Origin: Eledone cirrhosa
Lineage: Eukaryota
Direction of reading: 5' to 3'
Assembly (NCBI GenBank): GCA_964016885.1
Contig: OZ024748.1
Location: 40,548,001-40,612,000, forward strand
DNA: 64,000 nt
Below the pieces are notes generated by a model. It was given only the letters and a program-made list of their open reading frames with translations, was not told the DNA's origin and searched no databases. Below are positions 690-21,100 of this stretch, piece after piece. The position numbers and the translations under genes were made by a program. Position 1 is the first letter of the stretch. Each line of letters opens with the position of its first letter.

Positions 690-1915
690 CATTTACATTA
701 CTCTATATACACTATTGTATTTTCACAGTAAAGGCTTTACCTCACATAATACCTCACATAACATTTACATTACTCTATATACACTATTGTATTTTCACAG
801 TAAAGGCTTTACCTCACATAATATCTCACATAACATTTACATTACTCTATATATACTATTGTATTTTCACAGTAAAGACTTTACCTCACATAATATCTCA
901 CATAACATTTACATTACTCTATATATACTATTGTATTTTCACAGTAAAGACTTTACCTCACATAATATCTCACATAACATTTACATTACTCTATATATAC
1001 TATTGTATTTACACAGTAAAGACTTTACCTCACATAATATCTCACATAACATTTACATTACTCTATATATACTATTGTATTTTCACAGTAAAGATTTACC
1101 TCACATAATATCTCACATAACATTTACATTACTCTATATATACTATTGTATTTTCACAGTAAAGACTTTACCTCACATAATATCTCACATAACATTTACA
1201 TTACTCTATATATACTATTGTATTTTCACAGTAAAGGCTTTACCTCACATAATATCTCACATAACATTTACATTACTCTATATATACTATTGTATTTTCA
1301 CAGTAAAGACTTTACCTCACATAATATCTCACATAACATTTACATTACTCTATATATACTATTGTATTTTCACAGTAAAGGCTTTACCTCACATAATATC
1401 TCACATAACATTTACATTACTCTATATATACTATTGTATTTTCACAGTAAAGACTTTACCTCACATAATATATCACATAACATTTACATTACTCTATATA
1501 TACTATTGTATTTTCACAGTAAAGGCTTTACCTCACATAATATCTCACATAACATTTACATTACTCTATATATACTATTGTATTTTCACAGTAAAGACTT
1601 TACCTCACATAATATCTCACATAACATTTACATTACTCTATATATACTATTGTATTTTCACAGTAAAGACTTTACCTCACATAATATCTCACATAACATT
1701 TACATTACTCTATATATACTATTGTATTTTCACAGTAAAGGCTTTACCTCACATAATATCTCACATAACATTTACATTACTCTATATACACTATTGTATT
1801 TTCACAGTAAAGGCTTTACCTCACATAATATCTCATATAACATTTACATTACTCTATATACACTATTGTATTTTCATAGTAAAGGCTTTACCTCACATAA
1901 TATCTCACATAACAT
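690..1915 (+). repeat. 60-bp tandem array (about 20 copies), left half; derived from a MITE end
   Basis: Unit CATTTACATTACTCTATATATACTATTGTATTTTCACAGTAAAG(G/A)CTTTACCTCACATAATATCTCACATAA recurs with 60-bp period and matches the reverse complement of MITE 22714-22921. Confidence 0.97.
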
Positions 1916-1927
1916 CTCGTATACGAG

Positions 1928-1934
1928 AGACGTG
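1928..1934 (+). promoter_or_regulatory. AGACGTG DPE-like motif, candidate LINE internal promoter element
   Basis: Motif lies 12 nt inside the element's 5' end and resembles downstream promoter motifs of LINE 5' UTRs. Short, so it could be chance. Confidence 0.35.
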
Positions 1935-2117
1935 TGTGAACAAGCTCGGCTACCGAGTCGGATTTACTTACTCAAAAAGTGAGTTTTGATTAATTTTTTT
2001 TATACTGTAATATACGTTAACCCCTTGCCTTGGTCGTCAAACTTTGAGTTTATTTATTTTCGCCCCTTTTTGGGGCGAATTTTCCAGTTAAAAATTTATT
2101 ACGGCAAACTAATAGAA

Positions 2118-3727
2118 ATGGACGGAATTTTCACATCTCATCCTAACGTGAAAGCCACGCCCCCTACGAAAGGTGATACAGAGAAGCTAGAAGCACAAGG
2201 CTCTAAGTCTTCCCTCCTGACTTCTGCAAAAGAAACATGGAACACGGAATTAAAAGAAAAATTTGTAAAAATGGGTGAAAACCCAGAAAGTCACATAAAC
2301 GCAGACAAAAACAACAACGACAATAACAGCAATAGTCACAACACCAACCAAGGAAAAAATAACGATAACACCAAACAAAGCGAACCCACTACTGGTGCCT
2401 CCTTTGCACAGGCGGTCCGGAAAACACAAACCTGCAAGCAACTGGACATTACAACTCTGAGAGAAAAGATGAAGGAAGCGAAACAGTATGTAACTTTCAA
2501 AGAAGGAGGAGACTTCACAATCACCTCCCCACAAGAAATCAAAAGAGACACGACGCTAAGAACGATATCTTTCAGAACAATTTCCAACATAACAAGGAAA
2601 CCAACTCAATTATCCCAAAAAGAGATTGAGCTGGTCCTAAAAAATGTGTGGAGTGATATATCGTTCATACAAAAAGGGCCACTCTATGGGAATATAACGG
2701 TCCTAATGAAGGATCAATTGACGGCCAGGAAATACTCTGTGGCGCCAATTGTTTCCAAGCTACATACATTTTTTCCCACATATTTAGGGAAAAGAACGCA
2801 GAAAATAAGGGTCTCTGGAATCCGTCCAAATGCATGCATTTCCTGGGTACTAACAGGATTTTTAGAAGACGAGGACGGAATCCTCTCAGTAGGAGAAGTC
2901 ACCACAGACGTTTTCGGCGGTTTGAGCGTGGAGGTTCTGGTCCAAATGAGACCAGAACGAATAGCTAGAATACCACAGAGGGTGTCCCTCGATGGAGAAA
3001 CATTTATATATATTTCAGCCGAGGGTAGGAGGCCCATATGTTACTACTGTTCAAGCAGGGGTCATCTAAGGGCTGCTTGTCCTCAATTGACAAAAAAAAG
3101 GCTCTTTTGCCTACACACCACACACCACCACCGCCACCACCACTACCCGACAGCACGGACGAGGACCCAGCGGAAACGGCACCTAGTGACGAAGAGGGGG
3201 AACCCTTCCAACCTGTAAAAAGGAAAAAAAGAAAGCACCACTCGAACATAAACGAAACAAACACACAACCACCAACAAAAACAAAACAAACAGAACAAAC
3301 AAAATCCGCCCCACCCTAAAACATAACACATACAACAAAACGTAAGCACACACAAGAACAACAAACAAACACAACACAAATAAAACAGTATACATACATT
3401 AACACAAATAACAAAGAACTAGTAAAAACAATACACAAAGACCCTTTGGTGGAAACTGAAGGGCAATTCTTTGCAAGCGCGGCCAACAAACCGCATTTAA
3501 AAATGATAAGACTCCCAATGGACACCTATGTAAAACTAAGAGAGAACTTTCCTGAGGACGTGGGGAAAACATGTACTCGACCCTATAACCGCGTCCTCTT
3601 GAAACGTTTCCCCACCCACACCTCACCAAACACCCCCACTCCACCACAGAACAACACCCCACCAAACAACCCCTCCAATACGCCCATGGATATTGTGCAA
3701 CCTGCTCCTCAGGAGCCGAACAGGTAG
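2118..3727 (+). pseudogene. LINE ORF1 (nucleic-acid chaperone, CCHC zinc knuckle), disrupted
   Basis: ATG at 2118; SFAQAV motif; CYYCSSRGHLRAAC knuckle; -1 shift at the A8 run near 3092-3099 into a Pro/acidic/KRKKRK tail; in-frame TAA at 3317-3319, then the frame runs to TAG 3727, just before ORF2. Confidence 0.85.
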
Positions 3728-3748
3728 GTCCTTCCTCTTTTAACCAAC

Positions 3749-6700
3749 ATGGCTGATATAAGAGTTGGGTGTCTGAATGTACGTGGCCTGGGACTGTCTT
3801 GGAAACAAGGCAAACTTTTAAACGATCTCAGGTCGCATAGAATGGATGTAATGGCTATTTGCGAGTCCAGGATCAGCAGCGAGCACCAACTGGCGCCCCT
3901 CTTCGACAACTTTGAGATCTTCGCATCTCTCTGTCAACCGGGGGGTGGGGGTGGAGTTGTCGTTCTGCTGCGAAAACACCTGGGCCTCGCCATACAGAAG
4001 GTGCACCTGGACCCGGAGGGTCGACTGGTGGTTTTAGACGTCGGCAGTAGTGAAAGTGGAGCCCTTAGACTAATAGCTGTGTACGCCCCTTTTTGGGCAG
4101 CGCGGCCGGAATACTTCCAACGTCTGGAAACTTTTCTGGGAACGTCCCGCTCCTTGCTTTTAGTGGGGGACTGGAATGGTATCCTGGATGCACGTTGGGA
4201 CTATGTAGGGGCATGTGCCAATAGAGGGGGGTGTAAAAGCCTCAAAAGGTTAATCGGCCGATTTGACCTGGCCGATAGATATCGACTAGATTTTCCGACT
4301 GTACCACTATGGACGTGGACCAATCGCAGTGGAACATCTAGGTCGTACCTAGATAGGGTCCTAGTTAGAGAGAACGATAGGGACACATTTAGCTGTCCAA
4401 AAATGTTCATGGTTGACTATTCGGATCACAAGTTAGTGACCTGCATAGCCAACCTTGATAGAACCCATAGACAGGGACCCGGTTACTGGAAGCTGAACTT
4501 GTCCTTACCGAGAAGCAAAGCTTACAGTAAACGGATTAGCACGTTAGTTAAGCAGAGTTTGACAGGGGCAATTGTCAACAACAGGTGGTGGAGCTCTCTT
4601 AAGAGAGCAATTAGAATAGAATCGATAGGTTTTAGTCAGGAATTAGCAAGGGATAGGAACAAGACGGAAAGGGAATTAGTAGATAGAGTAGAAGAGGCGA
4701 TTAGGAGTGGCAATGTAGCCGGCGTGCTGGCATCAAGAATGGCCTTAGACCAGTTCTTTGAGGTGAAGCATGAAGGCTGCGTTGTCAGGAGTAAAATACG
4801 TGCTCTGGGTAATGAGGGAGCCAAAGCTGTGAGCTGGGCCCGAGTGACAGAGGCAAAAAGTGGGAACAAGTCCACGATTCGGTCTTTGAAGGACCAGGAT
4901 GGGCGTGTGATCCTTGAACCTGGGCAGATGTGTGCGGCCTTTCAGCGGCACTTTGCACGACTGTTCGAGAGGGGCGGCGCGCCGGGTGAGACTATGGATT
5001 TCAATCCATACCTCGACGGTCTGCCGCGCCTCTCGGACGCGGAGGCAAGTCCTGCGAAAGGACGATTTCAGCTGCTGAGATAGGGGCGGCGCTGAGCCAA
5101 TGCGGCAAACGCAAATCCCCGGGTCTCGATGGTCTACCATACGAGCTATATGTAGCGATGCCGGACTTGTTCTCCGATATCCTCGAAGCGGTCTACTGCA
5201 ACTGGCAGCAGAACGGGAGAATTCCCAGTTCTGTGACCAAGGGCGTAGTTACGCTGGTGAGGAAGGATGAGAACAAGGGGGATGACATAAGTAACTTCAG
5301 GCCCATAACTCTGCTAAATACAGAGTTAAAGATTTTGGCCAAGGTGTTAGCGAAGAGGTTGGCGCTTGTCGTTGGAAACCTGGTGGGAGAAGCGCAGACA
5401 TGCGCAATCCCGTCCAGGTCCATTCACGACAATCTCCACCTTATGCGATACATCATAGAGAGGGTAGGGAATGAACCCGGCTTTGGTGGGGCCCTGATCA
5501 ACTTGGATCAATCTAAAGCTTTCGATAGGGTTGACCATCGTTATCTGGATGCGGTGCTCGCGGCGGCAGGCTTCGGACCCGTTTTCAGGGGTTGGATTGC
5601 TGCGATGCACAGCAGCAACGTCTGCTCAAGGGTCAAGGTGAACGGCCACCTCTCGGAGCCGTTCCAAATCATGCGATCCATCCGACAGGGATGCCCTCTC
5701 TCCTCCCTACTGTATGTGCTGGCTCTTGAGCCACTACTGCGGAAGTTGGAGCGGTTGCAGGGCATCCCTTTGGAACCGGGATTGCAGAAAGCGGCGTCGG
5801 CCTACGCCGATGACGTGACAGTAATGGTGTCGAAAACCTCGCAAATCGGTGAGATCGGCACCTTACTGGAGGAATATGAAAGGTTTACAGGAGCCAAGCT
5901 GAACCGGGACAAGTCCGTCGGTTTGCAACTCGGAACATGGAGAGGCAAACCGATGCCCTCCAACGACGTCGTCGGACGCTGGACGGAGGGCCCGGTGAAG
6001 CTGCTTGGGGTCTGGTTCGGACCAGACCTCCAGGTGGAGAAAAACTGGAACGAGGTAACGGCCAGGGTGTTTGCACTCACCCAGAAGTGGGCCCAGTGCA
6101 AACTATCCCTGAAAGGTCGAGCGGAGGTGGCGAATACTTATATAGCATCCGTCATCTACTACCGCTTGACCGTCGTGCCTTGCCCAGTGAAAAGACTCGC
6201 CAAAATGGAGTGCGCGCTGTTCCAATTTCTTTGGAACAAGCGGACCCCTTTGGTGAGGAGATCCATCTGCTGTTAACACCCTTCGAAAGGAGGGCTGGGG
6301 ATGCCGTGGCTACAGATGCGTAAACACGCATTAAGGCTACGGCACCTCCAGGTATTCCTCACCGGTCAACCGGTGTGGGCCCCGTTTGTGAGGCGAGCCT
6401 TTCCCAGACTCGTCTCGCTCACCGAGCTGCAATCCTGGGTCAAGCAAAGACCGAGAAAAGTGGGCGACTGGCACATTGAATGTGCCCAGGCGCTCACGGC
6501 CCTCTGGAAAGCGGACCCGGCAATCAGTGGAGACTCCACGTCGACATTCTATAGAGGGTTGGTACGCAGCAGGTGCGACGATGCTCTCGGAGAAGCTCTA
6601 GGCATGGAGGAAGATGAACTGGCCAGTCTGTTCGGTAGGACGTTTGGCCCTGGACCGATGGACAACTTCCAAAAGTCCATGGCTTGGCAGTGCTACCGAG

Positions 6701-7185
6701 GGGCTCTACCCGTTCGAGACAAGCTCCACAGGCATGGGAGCCTGGGTAGAGATCCTTTGAATAAGATCTGTCCGAGATGCGTGCATGTTGACGAAACCGT
6801 TGCGCACGCATTCGTACACTGCCCAGGCATTGCTGACCTGTGGGGCTATGTGGAACGACTACTGTCGAGGGTGGGACCAATCCGGTTGACCACCGAGTCC
6901 ATTGTCACGATCAAACCGCCTCCCCCTTTCAAAAACGAAGGAGAGGCGGTTTTTCTCTGTGTGGTAGCCATGGCTAAAGAAGTTGTATGGTGGACGAGGC
7001 TGAAAGGGCTGAGGTCAGACACCTTTCTCTCCGGCCAACAACTGGTCCCCTTTTTCAAATACCATTTTAAAAGAAGGATCAGAATGGAGAGAGAGGTGCT
7101 CTACCCCAGCAAGTTTTATGAAAGGTGGGTGAAAGTAGGGAGAATGGCCAGAGTGAATGGGTCTTCTCTCTATATCAGCCTGTAG
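3749..7185 (+). pseudogene. LINE ORF2: AP-endonuclease, reverse transcriptase and C-terminal zinc-binding domain, disrupted
   Basis: APE motifs LNVRGL, VYAP, GDWN, LDRV, SDH. A 1-nt loss near 5048 restores KSPGLDG. RT motifs FRPITLLN, DQSKAFDRV, RQGCPLS, YADDV. Nonsense TAA at 6274-6276. C-terminal CPRC..ETVAHAFVHC. Confidence 0.95.
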
Positions 7186-7421
7186 GTGAAAGAAGAGGAA
7201 AAAGAGGAGACGAGGGAAGCACCTACTCTTTGTGCTCCTGAGGAGAAGGGTTACACATTTTTTCCGGGGTGTGTGCGACCCATGTTAATGCCCCCTCCCT
7301 ATTGAGGACTTCGTTTGTTGTTGTTATTTCATTGTTATATTTTTGTACTCGTTAATTATATGTAAACTTCCCCCTTGTATCTGTCCCTACCTTTTGTGCC
7401 CTAGTGGCAAATAAAGAAACC

Positions 7422-8750
7422 ACTCTATATATACTATTGTATTTTCACAGTAAAGGCTTCACCTCACATAATATCTCACATAACATTTACATTACTCTAT
7501 ATATACTATTGTATTTTCACAGTAAAGACTTTACCTCACATAATACCTCACATAACATTTACATTACTCTATATATACTATTGTATTTTCACAGTAAAGA
7601 CTTTACCTCACATAATATCTCACATAACATTTACATTACTCTATATATACTATTGTATTTTTACAGTAAAGGCTTTACCTCACATAATATCTCACATAAC
7701 ATTTACATTACTCTATATATACTATTGTATTTTCACAGTAAAGGCTTTACCTCACATAATATCTCACATAACATTTACATTACTCTATATATACTATTGT
7801 ATTTTTACAGTAAAGGCTTTACCTCACATAATATCTCACATAACATTTACATTACTCTATATATACTATTGTATTTTCACAGTAAAGGCTTTACCTCACA
7901 TAATATCTCACATAACATTTACATTACTCTATATATACTATTGTATTTTCACAGTAAAGACTTTACCTCACATAATATCTCACATAACATTTACATTACT
8001 CTATATATATACTATTGTATTTTCACAGTAAAGGTTTTACCTCACATAATATCTCACATAACATTTACATTACTCTATATATACTATTGTATTTTCACAG
8101 TAAAGACTTTACCTCACATAATATCTCACATAACATTTACATTACTCTATATATACTATTGTATTTTCACAGTAAAGACTTTACCTCACATAATACCTCA
8201 CATAACATTTACATTACTCTATATATACTATTGTATTTTCACAGTAAAGACTTTACCTCACATAATACCTCAAATAACATTTACATTACTCTATATATAC
8301 TATTGTATTTTCACAGTAAAGGTTTTACCTCACATAATATCTCACATAACATTTACATTACTCTATATATACTATTGTATTTTCACAGTAAAGACTTTAC
8401 CTCACATAATATCTCACGTAACATTTACATTACTCAATATTTACTATTGTATTTTCACAGAAAAGGCTTTACCTCACATAATATCTCACATAACATTTAC
8501 ATTACTCTATATATACTATTGTATTTTCAAAGTAAAGGCTTTACCTCGCATAATATCTCACATAACATTTACATTACTCTATATATACTATTGTATTTTC
8601 ACAATAAAGGCTTTACCTCACATAATATCTCACCTAACATTTACATTACTCTATATATACTATTATATTTTCACAGTAAAGGTTTTACATTACTCTATAT
8701 ATACTATTGTATTTTCACAGTAAAGGCTTTACCTCACATATCTCACATAA
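7422..8750 (+). repeat. 60-bp tandem array (about 22 copies), right half
   Basis: Same unit as 690-1915; becomes more divergent toward 8750. Confidence 0.97.
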
Positions 8751-8890
8751 TATGGAAGCAATGAGACTTTGATGTTATTTATTTTGAGAACAATACCTTA
8801 ACATCAGTATGAGCAGCGGGTTATAGCTGGTTTGAACAGAAAGTGGTGAGAGAATTCTGGTCAGATATGGCCAGTTTCAATGCTAAAGGG
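8690..8890 (+). mobile_element. Body and right TIR of the piggyBac-type MITE that seeded the 60-bp array
   Basis: Colinear with the reverse complement of 22714-22921 (ATTTATTTTGAGAACAATACCTTAA...GCTGGTTTGAACAGAAAG...GAGAGAATTCTGG); ends AATGCTAAAGGG|TTAG. Confidence 0.9.
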
Positions 8891-9189
8891 TTAGGTTGTA
8901 GCATTCCTGCGATAATTAATTTCCTTTAGACACTAAAACCCATTATACATGACAAACAAGTACATTACTAGAAATTCCATTTGTTATAAAATAAATAGGT
9001 TGGGTTGGGGCCTCAATATGTAAACTAAACAACTAATTCTGGTTTTTAAAAACAATCAATGAAGACAACCTAGAAAAATTATTGATTTTCCACACATCCC
9101 CAATCCTATTTATTCCACCCCACCCACCCCAATTATTTGGGACCCAAGAATATAATTTTAAGTGTTTTTCTTTTTCTTTGTTTATGAAG

Positions 9190-9353: not shown

Positions 9354-12300
9354 GTAAGTAAATACTCTAAATATGAACTTTCTGATTTTAAACATAATTT
9401 CCTTTTTCTATTTGAAAATATTTTTTGAAATATGTTAAGAAATAAAAGCTATAATTTCAATACTTCTTCTTGTCTGCTTCAGGTCCAGTATGAATTTAAT
9501 AAAGAAAACCAACTAGGATATTCGATAAAGCTAGTTATTAAGTATATTAATGTTTTCAAAGAAAATCCTGTAAGCTTTATTTGATTCAAAATTTCCACAA
9601 TAATATTATTTTTATCCAATACAGTTTTTAAAAAATAATGTACATCATGAAATATATGGTGTATAGTATATATCATGAAATATATATTGTATAATATATA
9701 TCATGAAATATATGTTGTATAATATATATTGTGAAATATATGTTGTATTATATCATGAAGTATATGTTGTATAGTATATATCATGAAATATATGTTGTAT
9801 AATATATATCATTAAATATATGTTGTATAATATATATCTTGAAATATATGTTGTATAATATACATCATGAAATATATGTTGCATAATATCATGAAATATA
9901 TGTTGTATAATATCATGAAATATATGTTGTATAATATATATCGTGAAATATATGTTGTATTATATCCTGAAATATTTGTTGTATAATATATATCGTGAAA
10001 TATATGTTGTATAATATATATCATGAAATATATGTTGTATTATATCATGAAGTATATGTTGTATAATATCATGAAATATTTGTTGTATTAAATCATGAAA
10101 TATATGTTGTATTATATCATGAAATATCATCATCATCATCATCATTTTACATCCGCTTTTCCCTGTTGTATAATATCGTGAAATATATGTTGTATAATAT
10201 CGTGAAATATATGTTGTATAATATATATCATGAAATATATGTTGTATAATATCATGAAATATATGTTGTATTATATCATGAAATATATGTTGCATAATAT
10301 CGTGAAATATATGTTGTATAATATTGTGAAATATATGTTGTATAATATATATCATGAAATATATGTTGTATAATATCATGAAATATATGTTTATTATATC
10401 ATGAAATATATGTTGTAAACTGAATGTTTGAGTTAATTAGCTAATTGTTAATTTATTGACAAACATTTGTATGAACCATCGATTATTTCCAGTCCTGGTA
10501 CAAGACAAACAGTTTTGCAATGACTCTACGAAGTGTTTGTGAATGGGCAGCGAAAAGAAAACTTAACTTTGATCACATACATATCATAACTAAGTGAGTT
10601 TTATTATTGATCTCTGTTACATTGATCTCTGTTTCAATAAGTGTTTCAGTGAGAATGTTCTACTACTTCCCTTGATTAAATAGTTTAGAAACATCTGTCT
10701 TTCTCTGATGTCAGTAAAACTACAGTCAGTCAAGAATCTCTCTCACACACAACCTCCTTTCTCATAGGCTCACTATGAAGGAGTGATGCTAGAGCTGTGA
10801 ATCTTGCATGCATTAATTTCAACTCTTCTTATTAATTACTGCCTTGTTTCTTTCCAGGGTCTATATTGAAAAATAAACCTCATTTAGTCATTTCATGAGA
10901 GTATCTTGGTCAGTCTATCAATTTTTCAGCTGACCCTCATGTAATAACCATATTGCTTCTTTCCAGGGTCTATGTTGAAAAATAAACCTCATTTGGTCAT
11001 TCCATGAGAGTATCTTGGTCAACCTATCAACCTTCTGTGGTTAGAAAAAGCTATCTCACTTACCGCTTTTCATAGGCGCCGCTAAATCCAATTGCCGGTT
11101 TCTCCTCTTCCACGTGCGTCCAACTCATTAACACCGGGAGCTGCCAAACTCACGTCCACCACGTTCCTGATCACCACTAGAGAGAGGCCGACCTGCTGGC
11201 CCTTCCGGTCGAGCACCCTTCCGGCCAAGCACCCTTCCGGTCAAGCACTCTTCCGGTCGAGCACTCCCCAGCTTCCGGCCACCGCACACCACACTATACC
11301 TACACCTTCCATATTTGTTAACCTCAACATGTGTACAACATTCATGGATAGAAGTTAATTTTGTAATTGGATATTTAATTAAATTATGCTATGTTTATCT
11401 TGATGTTGTTGCCAGTCTATGACACCATTGAAGGTACTTTTGAATTTTTCCCACTGACCAATCATTGCTTAGGTCCTAACCACCCCAGAAATCAATGGAA
11501 CTCACTGCATAATTCACATTCTGACTAATTTTTCACCTTTAGTTTTAGGTGTATCATGCAACATCAGGGGATGTGTTAAATGTTTTTAACAAGTTTCATT
11601 AGAACCTTTGATGATATCGCAGACTGTAAATAGAAAATTAACAAAAATATTCTTTTTTCTTTCTTTAAATCCCTAAAATAATTACTATTTCAGCAATAAA
11701 AATAGTAACTTACTTGGTCTTGGAGGTTCTGGAGGAATTTGTGGAGATGGTAAATGTGCAATTTCGAAATCAATCAAGTGGGGCCATTCCAATACTTTAA
11801 GTCATGAAATAGCACATGGGTGAGTAATTTATTTGTCTACCTAGGACTACATTTTCCAGTGTGCACATGGATAGTAAATTATTGCAGCTATGATCAGTTA
11901 TGTTAGTCGTCTACCTTGGACTACATTTTCCAGTGTGTACATAGATAGGTAAATTATTACAGCTATGACAGTTATGTTAGTTGTCTACCTTGGACTATAT
12001 TTTCCAGTATGCACAGGACTAGGTAAATTATTACAGTTATGACCAGTTATCTACCCGTAAAATCCCAAATAAAAATATGAATTATTAATCAGCAAAAAAG
12101 ACATTTGTAATCTTTGGATGTATCTAAATTGTTGTTGTTGTTATTTCAGTATTGATATCCCCCATGACGACCACTCCAACTGTAAGAATTATACAAGTAG
12201 AGATGGTTTAATGGGAAACAGGAACACTGGATGGAGTCTATGTTCTGCTAAATACTTCAATAGATGGTTAAAATGGTAATTCTTTTTAAACTTTTCCTTA

Positions 12301-15143
12301 CAAGATAGGGAAATACGTATATTTAGCATGCTTACATGTCTATCTTCTTCTTCGCCCACTTATTTCTGAGAGGGTCGTGGGGGCAGAGTCCTCAAACACT
12401 CCCTCCAGCAGATCATGCCAGAAGCTGATCCGGCTGGATCACCAAGCATGACCAGCTGAGTTCATGGATGTTATCCAATCATCTTGCTCGAGGTTTACCC
12501 CTGGGTCTCCTACCTGTTGGTTTTGCCAGTAAAATCTGTCCAGCGATTCTTTCCCAAGACATTCTAACCACATGACCGTAGTATCGGAGATGTGATCTCT
12601 TAATGTCTATATACAAATTGTGTTATTTTACATATACATTTACACAGTATTTATTATCTCTATACTGTATCATCATCATCATCATCATCATTATAATCAC
12701 TGTTTAATGTCCATTTTTCTATGCTAACATGGGTTAGACAAATTGTCCCATTGTGAGACAAGTCAAATCAGATGACTGTGTCTTGCTCATCTAGAACTGT
12801 TTCTTATTTGGTTTCTACAGCTTGATGGCCTTTCTAACACCAACCACTTTACAGTGTGGACTGGAGGCTTTTTACCAACATGACCACTTTACAGTGTGGA
12901 CTGGGGGCTTTTTATTGTGGCACCAACACGACCACTTTACAGTGTGGACTGGGGGCTTTTTATTGTGGCACCAAAGTTGATCACTTTACAGTGTGGACTG
13001 GGGGCTTTTTATTGTGGCACCAATATGACCATTTTACAGTGTGGACTGGGGGCTTTTTATTGTGGCACCAACACGACCACTTTACAGTGTGGACTGGGGG
13101 CTTTTTATTGTGGCACCAAAGTTGATCACTTTACAGTGTGGACTGGGGGCTTTTTATTGTGGCACCAATATGACCATTTTACAGTGTGGACTGGGGGCTT
13201 TTTATTGTGGCACCAACATGACCACTTTACAGTGTGGACTGGGGTCTTTTTATTGTGGCACCAAAGTTGATCACTTTACAGTGTGGACTGGGGGCTTTTT
13301 ATTGTGGCACCAATATGACCATTTTACAGTGTGGACTGGGGGCTTTTTATTGTGGCACCAACATGACCACTTTACAGTGTGGACTGGGTACATTTTATTG
13401 TGACATCAACATGACCACTTTACAGTGTGGACTGGGTACATTTTATTATGACACCAACACGACCACTTTACAGTGTGGACTGGGGGTTATTATTGTGGCA
13501 CCAACATGACCACTTTACAGTGTGGACTGGGAGCTTTTTATTGTGGGACCAACACGACGACTTTACAGTGTGGACTGGGTACTTTTTATTGTGACACCAA
13601 AATGACCACTTTACAGTGTGGACTGGGTACTTTTTATTGTGGCACCAACATGACCACTTTACAGTGTGGACTGGGGGCTTTTTATTGTGGCATCAACATG
13701 ACCACTTTACAGTGTGGACTGGGGCTCATTATTGTGGAACCAACATGACCACTTTACAGTATGGACTGGGGGCTTTTTATTGTGGCACCAACATGACCAC
13801 TTTACAGTGTGGACTGGAGGATTTTTATTGTGACACCAACATGACCACTTTACATTGTGAACTGGCGGCTTTTTATTGTGGCACCAGCATAACCAGTTTA
13901 CAGTATGAACTGGCGGATTTTTATTGTGGCACCAGCACGACCACTTTACAGTGTGGACTGGGTACTTATTATTGTGGCACCAACATGACTACTTTACAGT
14001 GTCTACGGTGTGCTGGAGTTGCTACAACTGGAGAGGTTGGTCTAGGGGGGGGGGACTATATATAAATATATTGTCGATTGACCAAGTTTTTTTTATTTCA
14101 GGGGCAAAGGGAAATGTTTGCAGGAAGAAAATATTTTCTTCAACGTAACTAAAGTAAAAACAACCACAGTTGTAAATACTTTCGGAAATGGTTTACTACC
14201 TGGTAAGTGTGTGTGTATGGGGGCGGAGTATGTGTGTGTGAGAGAGTGTGGGTGGGAGAAAGTGAGTGTGTGTGTGAGAGGGAATGAGTGTGTGTGTGTG
14301 TGTGTGAGTATGTATGTGTGTGTGTGTGTCAAACCGGTCATAACTGGCTGCTCATACTGATGTTAACATATTGTTCTCAAAATAAATATCAAAATCTCTA
14401 GATTCAATATTATGTGAGATAAAGCCTTTTTATGTGAAAATACAGTAGTAAATTTAGAGTAATGTGAATGCTAAAGGGTTAAAGCCCCAGCTGAGTTCAC
14501 TGGAGCAGCATGAAATGAAATGTTATGTTCAAGAACTCGACACAACCCACCCAGGAATCGAACCCATGACATTATGATTGTAAATTCAACACCCTTACCA
14601 TTAGGCCATACACCTCTACTAGTCAAATACTGGGGTGAAATTAATCTCCTTCCATATTGCTGGCCTTGTGTCTAATTTAAAAACCCTTAATCTATTCACA
14701 GCATCATATACAACCCCAGATGATTACTGCCGAATGATGTACGGAAGAGGCTTCACTTCTGTCGATTTGTATCCAAAACAAGTGAGTATATTTTACAACA
14801 GTCCAACTCTTAAATATTCTTTTCATTTATTTTCCTCACAAACATTTCATAGTTCTGAAAAGGACGGAGAAAAAGTTCTCACATTTCCTCCCGTTTCTTT
14901 CTACACAGAATAATATAAAAGGTTTCTTTTATATGTTTCACAGTTATTTAGATGTTCATCAGGAAAAAAATACCTTTATTCTCCCACTTATAAAGAAAAC
15001 TCACAGCAAATGGGACTTGTCCTCACATGAACAGGGTTAGACGAGCTGTCCCATTGTGAGACGAGCCAGGTTGGAGGACCGTGTTTTGCTCACACAGAAA
15101 TGATTTTGGCTTGGTTTCTACAGCTTGATGCTCTTCTTAATGC

Positions 15144-15175
<32 letters not shown>

Positions 15176-18100
15176 GAAGTTGTATTTAATTTGTTGGAAT
15201 TCCGACAAACATAAATGTTTATAACTGATTTAGAGCGCTCAACAAGTTACTGGAGTAAATATTCAATGATATTAAATAATTGGAAACTATATTTATAAAA
15301 CCATATTTATTTTATTATATATATTTCAAGGGCAACCAAGCCAACCTTGGTGCGCTTTCATCAGATAAAATACAAAGTTTGTTTTATAAATAAAGACGTA
15401 CCCATGAAGATTCAACCTTATCGGTCGGAAATTCGCTGGATAGTCAATATATATATATATATATATATTCTCCACGTATATATATATACATATGTAGATA
15501 GATAGATAGATATCTTTCTTTATTTGCCACAGGGGCGTACAAAAATGGGACATTACAAGACGTGACGGCGGGGGTTTTACATAAAAATAACTTTAACATT
15601 AATAAATAACAATAAACTATATATAATCAGTTGTAGTGCACCTGAGCACTGTACACAATAATTTCATTATTATTATTTTTTTTAATAATAAAATAACAAT
15701 CGAAATCCCCAATAGGGGGGAAGATATATTACTGCAGGGTTGTTTTACACCCCGTGGATAGAACAACCCTCAACACCAGGAACACGTTTTGTAGGTGTTC
15801 CTGTCTTCCTTCTGTTTATCTTCCTCAACCTACAGGTTTATATACAGAGAAGGCCCATCCACTCGGGCCATTTTTGCCACATTCACCCACCTTTCAGCGA
15901 ATTTACTGGGGTATAGCACCTCTCTCCCCACTCTCACCTTCCTTCTGAAGTGATGCTTAAAGAAGGGGATAAGTTGTTGTCCGGAGAGAAAGGTGTTTGC
16001 CCTCAGTCCTTTTAACCTCGCCCGCCATATTACCTCTTTCGCCGTAGCCACCAAACAGAGGAAAACCGCCTCTTCTTCGTTCTTAAATGAAGGCGGCGGG
16101 GTGATCCTCACAATGGACTCGGCTGACAACTGGATGCATCCCACACGTGACAGCAGCTGTTTGACATAATTCCACAGGTCGGTCACCCCTGGGCACTGAA
16201 CAATTGCGTGCAGAACGGTTTCGATGTCCTGCTCGCATCTTGGACAGGTCCTTTTGGCGGGATCTTTGCCAGGGCGTCCGTGCCTGAAGATTTTGTCTCG
16301 AACTGGTAGAGCTCCTCGGTAGCACTGCCAGGCCAGAGACCTCTGGAAGTTATCCATAGGCCCTGGACGGAAAGTCCTCCCGAACAGACTGGTCAGTTCG
16401 TGCTCCTCGATGCCTAGAGTTTCCCCGAGAATGTCGTCGCACTTATCCTCCACTAATCCCCTATAGAATGTCGAAGTAGAGTCTCCACTGATTGCTGTTT
16501 TCACTGAGCGCGTGTTTGCGCATCATCAGCCACGGCATTCCCAGCCCTCCGTTAGAAGGGTGTTGACAGCAGATGGATCTCCTCACCAATGGAGCCTGTT
16601 TCTTTCAGAGGAACTTGAAGAGTAGGCGTTCTATTTTGGTAGATAGATAGATAGATAGATACATACATACATACACACACACATATATGTGTATATACAT
16701 ATACACACACATATATATATGTATATATACTTTCAGAAATGTGGAATAATTGCGTGTGCTTATCTGGAAAAAGGTAATAAACATGGACTTCTTAGAATCG
16801 GCACAGGTGGTATCGATGGTCTTCCTTGCGGTCAACAAATGGTAAGCAAAGTATTTCTGTCAATCAATTCTTATTTAACATCGATTTAAAAAAAAAAGAT
16901 TTTTTAGTGTTTAGTAAAATTGTAATGAGCCCTGCCTCTTGCAGTTCCCCATAAAAGTCTGTCTGAAGGCTCGTGAGGCCAGTGCTTCTCCCGGTTTCAT
17001 GGTGTGAAACGACTGAGAGTACAAGACTTCTTCCTGGACAAGATGCTAGTCCATTGCAGGGTTAAACGCCCAGTTATTACTGGTACTCATTTGCTGGGGC
17101 AATGTGAAATGAACTGTCTTGCTCAAGAATACAACACACAACCCAGCCCAGGAATCGAACCCATAACATTATGATCATAACTCTGTTTCCAAGTAACATA
17201 CACATTACTGAGCCCCACTGGTCACTTCCCTTCAGCCATAGCTATCTAGATGACCTCTTGACCCCCGCTGATCACTGACCTCTTGACCCCCACTGGTCAC
17301 TGACCTCTCGACCCCCCACTGGTCGCTGACCTCTCAACCCCCCACCACTGGTCACTGACCTCTCGACCTCTTCTGGTCACTTCTCTTCAGCCATAGCTAT
17401 CTAGATGACCTCTTGACCCCCCTCTGGTCAATGACCTCTCGACCCCCACTGGTCACTTCTCTTCAGCCATAGTTATCTAGATGACCCCTTAACACCCACT
17501 GGTCACTTCCCTTCAGCCATAGCTATCTAGATGACCTCTCGACCCCCACTGATCACTGACCTCTTGACCCCCACTGGTCACTGACCTCTCGATCCCCCCC
17601 ACTGGTCACTGACCTCTCGACCCCCTCCCCACTGGTCACTGACCTCTCGACTTCTTCTGGTCACTTCTCTTCAGCCATAGTTATCTAGATGACCCCTTGA
17701 CACCCACTGGTCACTTCCCTTCAACTATAGCTATCTAGATGACCACTCGACCTCCACTGATCACTTCAGCCATTGCTATCTAGATGACTCTCTTCCTCCT
17801 GTTTGCTCCCTTAATGTCCAGAGTTCCATAAACTTTTCAAACGGAACGAACCACAAACCCTCAGTTGCCAACCTCCACTGGCATGCACCTAATTCTCCCC
17901 CTCTTCCTGCAGTAGTCCTCCATCAACTTCTAGTACTTTCTTCTCTGTCCCTCCCATCGTCTCTTCCTAGGCAACATCTCCAGTAGAATATCTTCACAAT
18001 AAAGTTGAATGTACCAGATGTCATATAATGGACTCTAAAATTACATTTTAACAATTTAGGTTTGCCGTTCCAATATGCGTTGCGAGAGTTTGAATGAAAC

Positions 18101-21100
18101 TAATTTATGGGTACCATTACCAGTAATAACAGGGGGATGGAGTGCATGGAGTCCTTACTCAGCCTGTAATCAAATGTGTGGAACAGGTGTGAGATTGTCC
18201 ACACGGTACTGCAACAATCCTAAGTAAGTTATCTTATTCTTCTTTTTCTTTTTCTTCACCCACTTATTCCTGAGAGGGTTGTGGAGGCAGAGTCCTTAAA
18301 CAAACAGTCTCCAACTGATCCAGCTGGATCCCCAAGACAACTGTTATGGTTTGCTCTCTTTCCGACCCTCTTTGGGGGTCTCAGGATAAGTAAGTTAACA
18401 TGTTGTCATATGTCTAAAAGCTGGTCATGAGTCTTGGAGGCTCATCAGGCTGGTACTTATCTCGGTTTCTGTGGTGTTAAGTGACTGAAAGTACAGCACT
18501 TTCCCCTGGACAGCACGCCAGTCTATCACTGGATTAAACCCCCAGCTATTGCTGGTACTCATTTTCAGCTTAGTATACTGGAGCAACATGAAATGAGGTG
18601 TTTTGTTCAAGAACACAACACAAGGAATGTAACCCACAACACTATGATCATAAGTCCAACACCCTTACCACTAGGCTATGTGCTGTCATATTGTTGTATT
18701 AGTTTCTAAGTTAAAGCTGATAATTAGAGAATCATTTTCTCTCTTTTCCAGACCTTTTGGTACAGAATGGTGCAAAGGAAGCAGTGTACGAGCCAAGTTA
18801 TGTAATATCCACGTATGTATAATTATGTTTCCTTATAATTACACATTTAAGTCTTATGTCCCCTATACTGTTTTACAACAAAACATGTTAATAAAAGGGT
18901 TAATGACATATCGTAATGAAAGGGTTAAAAACTATTCTATAAAGTGTTGTAGTTTGCTTGAAGCATTGTTGAATAGGAAATATATGTTTAAATAATTTTG
19001 AATACCATACAATGCATTAGAAAATTAAAAGTGCCAAGACAACAATAGAATCTTACCTTAGCAAATTTGTTATTTTGGCACTTTTAATTTTCTAATACAT
19101 GGTTTTCAAAATTATTCAAATTTATATTCTACAAAGTTTGTCCCCTTTTTTTTACAGCCATGTAATAGAAGGGAGAGAAATGTTGCTGAAATCATCCGTC
19201 AACGTGCATCTGAGCATTGTGCCTTGTACGTCAGACATAATTATATTGATCCAAAGCAGTTTAATGGAACAGGAAAATCTCTTTCTGACATTTTTTCAGG
19301 TTAGTGTTAATACTGCTTTGATTTTAGTTCAGTTATACTGTACAGAGGGAGGCCATAATTAGATTGCTGCTGCTAACAAAGAAACACAATAAAGGTGAAG
19401 TAAGGACCGAAACTCTCACTTGAGATGGGGAGGGTTTCTTCTCTGAAGACCTTCTGCTGACCAGCTCACCTGAGAGTTTTACTTGAAGACCTTCTGCTGT
19501 CCAGCTCACCTGAAAGTTTTACTTGAAGACCTTCTGGTGACCAGCTCACCTGAAAGTTTTACTTGAAGACCTTCTGCTGACCAGCTCACCTGAAAGTTTT
19601 ACTTGAAGACCTTCTGGTGACCAGCTCACCTGAAAGTTTTACCTGAAGACCTTCTGCTGTCCAGCTCACCTGAAAGTTTTACTTGAAGACCTGCTGACCA
19701 GCTCACCTGAAAGTTTTACTTGAAGACCTTCTGCTGACCAGCTCACCTGAAAGTTTTACTTGAAGAGCTTCTGCTGACCAGCTCACCTGAGAGTTTTACC
19801 TGAAGACCTTCTGCTGTCCAGCTCACCTGAAAGTTTTACTTGAAGACCTGCTGACCAGCTCACCTGAAAGTTTTACTTGAAGACCTTCTGCTGACCAGCT
19901 CACCTGAAAGTTTTACTTGAAGAGCTTCTGCTGACCAGCTCACCTGAGAGTTTTACCTGAAGACCTTCTGTTGAACAGCTCACCCGAGAGTTTTACCTGA
20001 AGACCTTCTGTTGAACAGCTCACCTGAGAGTTTTACCTGAAGACCTTCTGTTGAACAGCTCACCTGACAGTTTTACCTGAAGACCTTCTGTTGAACAGCT
20101 CACCTGACAGTTTTGTACCACTGTTTTATTACAAACAGAGAATATTTTCACATTTAATATAATTATATAAACTCATATACCTGTAATTCAAAAAGCTAGT
20201 TTTGTCACAAACTACGTCATGCTGAATCTCCCTGAGAATTATGTTTAACCTGTTGATTGGCACGTGTATTTTACACAGCTGCAGTTACTGTGCTGGTTTT
20301 TTTTTTTCCAGTAAAATGAAATTATGAACTGCTGGAAACGAGTTATCAGTGGCACTGGAATGCCTACATGTTAGGACGAGTTATCTTGTCTATAGCACGG
20401 AAGAGGTTAAAGGTCAACATGTCTGTGGAATACTCAGCCATTTTCATGAGCCGGGTCATTGTGTTGATCAAACAACTGGAACTCTCTTCATTGAAACAGA
20501 CAGAAGTCCATTCCATCCCTGTATTTCTTTATCACAAACTATTATTTTAATTAAATCAACATCACAACTAATTATTTTATTTCTATATCTACCAGAACTT
20601 CGTTATTTTCTTAATTATCCTCATCAGTCAATTGGTGGCTTTGATGATCTGGGTCGCCATTTCAACGTCAGTCCCTCCGATTGTGCAGCTCTCTGCATCA
20701 GCAATGATAAATGTCATTCTTTTGAATATAAGAGGGAAAACAGGAAGTGTGATCTTTCAACCATAACAATTTCTAATCAAACCATCGGGGTACAACAACA
20801 CTGGGACCTCTACATGTTGCCGTCGACAGGTGAGGTATTACTTTACACTAATAATTGTTTCTACTTGTGGCACAAGGCCAGCAATTACCCAGTACATTAC
20901 TGGTACTTTATTTTATCGACCCCGTAAGAATGTAAGGCAAAGTTAACCTCGATGGGATTTGAACTCAGACCATAAAGGGACGTAACTATGCTAGAAAGCA
21001 TGACGTCCAACCCTCTACCGATATTGCCAATTCTCCGCCCTTTATTTTATTTTACACTAATAATTGTTTCTACTTTTGGCACAAGGCCAGCAATTACCCA

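Follow-up and report, generated by a model that had tools for sequence, protein, structure and literature searches.

A site-specific LINE in tandem arrays derived from a MITE of Eledone cirrhosa, with young shared units inside old MITE bodies

Results

A tandem array with a LINE in the middle and a MITE at the end

We analysed a window of 64,000 nucleotides from Eledone cirrhosa (assembly GCA_964016885.1, contig OZ024748.1, positions 40,548,001 to 40,612,000 of the forward strand); coordinates are counted from its first nucleotide. The locus lies on the forward strand and begins with a left array (690..1915) of 17 units of 72 bp, plus the CAT of the next unit. A LINE of 5506 bp follows (1916..7421), which agrees with the 5.5-kb mid-array LINE of an earlier, sequence-only reading of the window. 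The right array (7422..8681) has 16 full units together with two partial ones, of 62 bp and 44 bp. The locus ends with the terminal unit and the rest of the host MITE (8682..8890), whose right TIR is at 8877–8890. The sequence-only reading had counted about 42 copies of a 60-bp unit; instead, TRF reports a period of 72 bp with 17.0 + 17.6 copies, or about 35–36 units in total.

Two more copies of the MITE are on the reverse strand. The first is intact (22714..22921), with 208 bp, 14-bp TIRs, and TTAA on both sides. The second (14329..14482) is truncated: only MITE positions 2–158 are matched, and the other end is absent. Both contain a single unit, as had been noted for the copies at 22714 and 14331. 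The array unit corresponds to a stretch of the intact MITE that lies directly inward of one TIR (local alignment score of 89; none of 1000 shuffled sequences reached this, and the best scored 40). Also as proposed earlier, the remainder of the MITE and its right TIR follow the last unit and end at 8890: positions 8684–8893 align to the intact MITE with 85% identity over 210 bases (E = 9e-67).

The sequence-only reading went further and described a 208-bp MITE inflated whole to 8.2 kb, with parent and product both in the window. But neither a left TIR nor its TTAA precedes the array, which begins at 690 straight after unrelated sequence, and the right TIR borders on TTAG instead of TTAA. The array locus is therefore not a complete inflated MITE. 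Nor is the intact MITE a special parent, although it belongs to the array's family: its unit differs from the window array's unit at 7 of 60 columns, and its body is 89.6% identical to that of the window array, with closer bodies in 5 of 100 single MITEs elsewhere. The window array's unit differs at 1 of 60 columns from the type that is common to arrays elsewhere.

The MITE family has 14-bp TIRs that start with CCC, a small non-coding body, and a high copy number. Exact matches to three variants of its left end (8865 + 1326 + 1510) indicate at least 11,701 left ends in the genome. The TTAA target duplication is present at many genomic loci as well as around the intact copy (and is missing from the array locus in the window). 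We call the MITE piggyBac-type provisionally, with reference to the TTAA and the CCC...GGG ends only. We also considered a variant of the left TIR as a marker for a subfamily that carries arrays, and rejected it: most copies with that TIR have a single unit.

The LINE is young and encodes an APE-type endonuclease

The LINE is a full-length APE-type non-LTR retrotransposon without a poly(A) tail. It has two ORFs, both of them broken in the window copy. The ORF1 region (2118..3727) has a weak CCHC zinc knuckle, which is below the Pfam cut-off, and is split across more than one frame. ORF2 (3749..7185) encodes an APE endonuclease (Exo_endo_phos), a reverse transcriptase (RVT_1), and a C-terminal zinc motif (zf-RVT); its reading frame shifts near 5080, and a stop codon interrupts it at 6274–6276. 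Across 48 full-length copies from the genome, the pairwise difference is 1.4%, and 7 of the 48 have both long ORFs intact.

Judging from its reverse transcriptase, the LINE likely belongs to the Tx1 clade. Among the 120 matches listed, the sole one named TX1 is 38% identical (251 bits), and this name is an automatic label. In a separate search, the reverse transcriptase matched human L1 ORF2 with 130 bits and R2 with 62–85 bits. At the LINE's 5' end, a search of Rfam found no match to a ribozyme or any other RNA family. We also noticed that the 5' region folds better than shuffled sequence does (z = -3.1).

The LINE inserts at one base of the unit

To find 3' ends of the LINE, we searched the 3.0-Gb genome with 26 bases from close to that end; of 285 exact matches, 251 join the unit at one base. 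We then fetched 60 of the first 100 LINE 3'-end places listed, skipping tandem neighbours. Fifty-five copies are on target, each with 95.9% identity or more to the LINE of the window. The remaining five are relatives (78–91% identical) whose ends lie at simple repeats resembling TATC or TA. In other words, all of the young copies (55/55) are on target, at the same single base, and all 55 lack a poly(A) tail. Both fractions (251/285 and 55/60) lie above the 20% of flanks in one repeat that has been used to define target preference (PMC4494074). This LINE is not a chance insert: it is a site-specific family, with around 250 places in the genome. In four runs from other individuals or organisms, contigs cover the LINE 3' end and also the unit, but none of the listed pieces spans the junction with 31 letters on each side (one reaches 30), so we do not count these runs in support.

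The 5' junction is just as uniform. Fifty copies keep their 5' end, and 49 of these have one upstream junction with 7 unit bases lost, which is also the loss at the insertion point in the window. Among the five copies that are truncated at the 5' end, four repeat 2, 6, 9, or 16 bases starting from unit column 11, so we place the nick by the LINE's endonuclease between columns 10 and 11.

The stretch of unit directly before the LINE (columns 47–72) is nearly invariant, with 4 substitutions in 1235 positions across 48 copies; for comparison, the preceding unit (columns 52–72) has 19 substitutions in 674 positions. This stretch therefore likely travels with the LINE, or else is needed for joining. 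In the window, the putative 5' leader would be the roughly 29 bases of target-like sequence at 1887..1915. The match to the leader is just upstream of the nick in arrays and downstream of it in a single MITE. Among the matches listed for the 50 copies that keep their 5' end, the only single-unit host that we recognised is locus L180, where 51 host bases are duplicated.

The array preceded the LINE

The sequence-only reading proposed that the MITE gave rise to a satellite which then received the LINE. This order holds. There are many arrays without the LINE. At 24 loci, the units that flank the LINE on both sides have 1.75 differences, versus 1.38 and 1.54 between neighbouring units (P = 0.21). 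Furthermore, across 48 copies, the relatedness of the LINEs does not predict the flanking units (Mantel tests: r = 0.07, P = 0.18 on the left and r = 0.02, P = 0.40 on the right). Since the flanking units are no more different than neighbours are and are not predicted by LINE relatedness, the LINE mostly entered arrays that already existed.

Two other ideas about the insertion did not hold. One is that whole units travel with the LINE, which is not consistent with the negative Mantel tests or with the lack of a sequence step across the LINE. A 65-bp target duplication fails as a general rule: the last unit on the left and the first unit on the right are identical at just 1 of the 34 loci with variants, so long duplications are rare.

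Inner array units are younger than their hosts and are shared among loci

The other part of the earlier proposal, a one-off local inflation, did not stand up: the array is present at very many loci, and its inner units are young and shared. The MITE bodies around the arrays are old, with 79.5% pairwise identity versus 81.6% for single MITEs. And array hosts form no clade, as a tree of 115 bases, which has little power, requires 40 label changes versus 42.3 if labels are shuffled (100 of 500 shuffles are as low). Because the array bodies are as old as the single MITEs and form no clade, the composite has not moved recently as one unit.

These results bear on whether a piggyBac transposase spread a MITE subfamily with arrays, or the whole composite of MITE, array, and LINE. 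Such spread would explain why both TIRs are kept at many loci, and having one junction everywhere fits with a single origin. However, none of the 2317 pairs of array bodies is over 97% identical, so there are no young clones, while the LINEs differ by so little; and the copy in the window has no left TIR. Recent movement of the composite by transposase is refuted, and we view any version of this explanation as highly improbable. (We also looked for recent movement of a two-unit MITE, but the only identical pair that we found has common flanks, which makes it a segmental duplicate.)

The inner units of the arrays are younger than the bodies that enclose them and are common to many loci. At 30 stable columns, and with loci that had been retrieved by their likeness to the window array omitted, the rate of substitutions is highest in single MITEs (4.5%), intermediate for inner units (2.3%) and per-locus majorities (1.2%), and lowest in the LINE (0.8%). 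One haplotype is found in 32 of 50 arrays versus 2 of 102 single MITEs, where it was via the LINE, which may select one array type, that 36 of these 50 arrays had been found. For the 14 arrays that were not found via the LINE, the rate is 3.4% (2.2–4.5%), which overlaps that of the single MITEs (3.7–5.4%). Last units are different in that they retain features of the host at their far end: a MITE-type unit tail was seen in 21 of the 70 last units and in 1 of the 70 second-last ones.

The junction between units is shared as well. In the genome, the common junction has 34,716 exact matches, versus 238 for the junction that would be expected from a local ACAT microhomology (these counts tally units, not events). 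On contig C1, the junction is present in 12 of the 33 MITEs within 31 Mb of the contig's end and in 0 of the 83 further in, with the caveat that the cut-off was chosen after seeing the data and that the loci sampled for this expanded fraction, 116 in number, are all on this one contig. Two of the 83 inner MITEs (L262 and L275) have duplications that fail the strict junction match, and arrays deep inside contigs do exist. Given the old and unrelated bodies, the young shared units, the excess of one junction, and the bias towards the end of C1, it is likely that units moved between loci, most probably by ectopic conversion near chromosome ends.

Alternatively, each array might have grown alone, by slippage from its own host MITE, and the LINE might just prefer one type of array sequence. 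Some arrays do look like this. Three LINE-free arrays are largely of their own host's sequence (L132, L220, and L262; L141 is so in part), and there are other local expansions of the MITE (L004 and L275). Also, in columns 11–50, 57 of 167 private variants are common to the last and second-last units, which is above the background of 3–11%. But this sharing drops to the background (5%) in columns 51–60, with just 5 of 66. Independent growth also does not explain why the common junction, which lacks local microhomology, outnumbers the microhomology junction by about 146 to 1, or why inner units have fewer private changes than single MITEs do. As an account of the arrays in general, we find independent growth quite unlikely.

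A model for the spread of the repeat

We propose that the repeat spread among old MITE copies by ectopic gene conversion in distal regions and then grew locally, and that the LINE rides along. We put the probability of this reading at about 60%. Conversion is how we interpret what can be observed directly: the LINE nested in the MITE-derived repeat, its 3' and 5' junctions at fixed positions, MITE bodies that are old and unrelated, and inner units that are young and shared between loci.

In this model, the junction between units would have arisen once or rarely, and recombination repair, with an existing array as template, would have carried it into further copies of the MITE. Each array would then have grown locally by slippage or unequal exchange, which would leave host sequence mainly in the last unit. 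At many loci, an old TTAA-flanked MITE would thus come to bear its own left end as a tandem repeat of 72 bp, and the young LINE would enter at one fixed base of this repeat. The LINE's transcript probably starts with about 29 bases of unit sequence. These leader bases could anneal just upstream of the nick, as has been proposed for some R2 elements, which would give the uniform 5' junction and the 7-bp loss. Since arrays offer the upstream match to the leader and single MITEs do not, full-length LINEs would collect in arrays.

Could the LINE's own machinery seed and spread its target, and so create new landing sites? The reverse transcriptase might use read-through or array RNA as template, write the junction into a single MITE that has been nicked, and stop early, or a nick by the endonuclease might trigger repair from an array. 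Several observations would fit. The LINE's leader and the array-type tail of the unit have one and the same sequence, and the array majorities and the LINE copies are similar in age (1.2% and 0.8% substitutions). Both LINEs and arrays cluster toward contig ends: on C1 and C2, of 35 exact LINE 3' ends, 33 are no more than 31 Mb from an end, and the other two, in the interior, are older off-target relatives. The nick site is present, and used, in single MITEs (L187 as well as L180 with its host duplication), and L187 and L196 have inserts of around 50 bases or less. At column 20, the array type is already seen in the first unit of 64 out of 76 arrays, versus 43 out of 103 single MITEs. And R2 makes tandem target duplications, according to excerpts from PMC3774820.

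On the other hand, LINE relatedness is not linked to the flanking units and the sequence has no step across the LINE, as described above. Among five independent two-unit arrays, which we inspected by eye, one fits the polarity that seeding predicts (L335), one is the opposite (L129), and the rest are local or mixed. Ordinary turnover of arrays also yields gradients at the edges. Overall, we doubt that the LINE seeds its target, and the broader idea is similarly tentative: that the LINE builds its own habitat, with the junction copied into thousands of dead MITEs that become minisatellite arrays and better landing sites for full-length copies, in a self-amplifying loop. If true, a retrotransposon would drive both the birth and the homogenisation of a satellite.

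Discussion

These results bear on how satellites that are born from transposons get started, and on how they remain uniform across scattered copies. In this family, tens of thousands of junctions are available in hosts whose age is known, and single-unit, two-unit, and long-array stages occur together. Having these stages side by side could make it possible to separate local slippage, ectopic conversion (our preferred reading), and seeding driven by a LINE. The LINE itself is a clean example of a site-specific APE element: most copies are full-length, and its natural target is multicopy.

Among titles and abstract openings in the literature (most subscription papers and Repbase were outside this scope), we found none on this LINE or MITE family, or on a LINE that seeds its target satellite. 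PMC13282606, in excerpt, gives counts of L1-Tx1 and piggyBac elements without target analysis. Several other systems resemble parts of what we see in Eledone.

Tx1L elements target the internal tandem repeats of Tx1D. Excerpts from PMC4494074 and PMC1950540 describe this pair from Xenopus laevis, in which the LINE Tx1L is at a specific sequence of the non-autonomous piggyBac-type element Tx1D (the composite is Tx1C). As far as these excerpts show, Eledone is similar in having an APE-type LINE at a fixed site inside a non-autonomous element that we put in the piggyBac type; the likeness we draw is one of arrangement. In contrast, the host in Eledone is a MITE of 208–229 bp whose own left end forms the repeat, and its full-length LINEs have the uniform 7-bp loss and the target-like 5' leader.

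Other members of the Tx1 clade, as excerpted from PMC4494074, also insert into repeats: Tx1-Mar of crocodilians prefers Mariner-N4_AMi, and Kibi and Koshi prefer microsatellites. The Eledone family likewise has another transposon as its target, and its older relatives end at simple repeats (5/60). In contrast to what those excerpts report, all copies of the young Eledone family (55/55) are on target, at a single base.

The endonuclease of R2 differs in type from that of an APE-type LINE. Nevertheless, the 5' junctions are alike. In excerpts from PMC3774820, R2 elements of springtail, earwig, and silkmoth have target sequence at the 5' end of their RNA, and uniform 5' junctions form as the cDNA anneals to the target. 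The springtail R2 has a uniform 7-bp deletion, and the earwig R2 carries downstream target sequence (PMC3774820). Full-length Eledone LINEs similarly have a near-invariant, target-like stretch at the 5' junction. Unlike R2 with its HDV-like ribozyme, the 5' end of the Eledone LINE has no match in Rfam.

Finally, Xstir and miDNA4 of Xenopus are tandem repeats from inside a MITE, which are found as single units or as arrays; in excerpts from PMC12628747 and PMC6947457, the models for their growth are a local stem-loop, microhomology, or NAHR. The Eledone repeat was also born from the interior of a MITE. Unlike in those accounts, old hosts that are unrelated to one another have a junction and a haplotype in common, and an active LINE targets these. 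The nesting itself is a strategy already known from frogs, and what is new in Eledone is the young, shared units inside old, unrelated MITE bodies.

Left TIR base at LINE-bearing loci

At the LINE-bearing loci (L151-L210), 19 of 27 have C or A as the left TIR base that precedes the unit. Genome-wide, this base is C or A in 24% of cases (P = 6e-7), and among the distal arrays of contig C1, it is C or A in 4 of 12.

Origin of the LINE's 5' end, target and tandem runs

The first bases of the LINE form a 14-bp palindrome (window 1913-1930), and by eye, 9 of 13 positions match the part of the MITE that continues past the unit. Judging from these sequence features, we suggest that the start of the LINE is target sequence from downstream that the element captured at an earlier time.

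Five older relatives of the LINE (L157, L165, L175, L176, and L197; 78-91% identical to the window LINE) have the same 3' end. Their insertion sites are TATC- or TA-like simple repeats, which suggests that the LINE switched targets, from a microsatellite to the similar-looking site in the MITE.

At two places (G000:C1:4.22-4.26 Mb and C10:40.72-40.75 Mb), 5-6 LINEs lie in tandem at a spacing of ~6 kb, separated by spacers of 1-20 units. Two of the spacers have identical variants in common, and these shared variants point to local duplication as the probable source of the tandem runs.

Other repeats and rearrangements

The MITE has also given rise to further local repeats: by eye, a repeat of ~44 bp from its right part lies 3' of the array at L004, and a 39-bp repeat at L275 arose from the left TIR. 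Within the arrays at L059, L077, and L189, there are fold-back inversions, at or close to a hairpin-prone stretch of the unit. Long 62-bp arrays with the rarer, microhomology junction are clustered in one region (G000:C12:45.5-48.8 Mb).

In the window, a 29-bp inverted match lies on both sides of the array-LINE-MITE structure (610-638 and 9132-9159). The right flank of this structure is part of another dispersed repeat, which also adjoins the MITE in L010. A larger element may enclose the MITE.

This stretch is rich in repeats: besides the 72-bp array, five minisatellites are packed into it, at 9644-10417 (24-52 bp units), 12874-14002 (48-bp unit), 17251-17665 (25-bp unit), 19444-20114 (40-bp unit), and 23901-25073 (14-bp unit). 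A satellite with a 35-bp unit (~1082 copies) occupies 26186-64000, up to and past the window's end.
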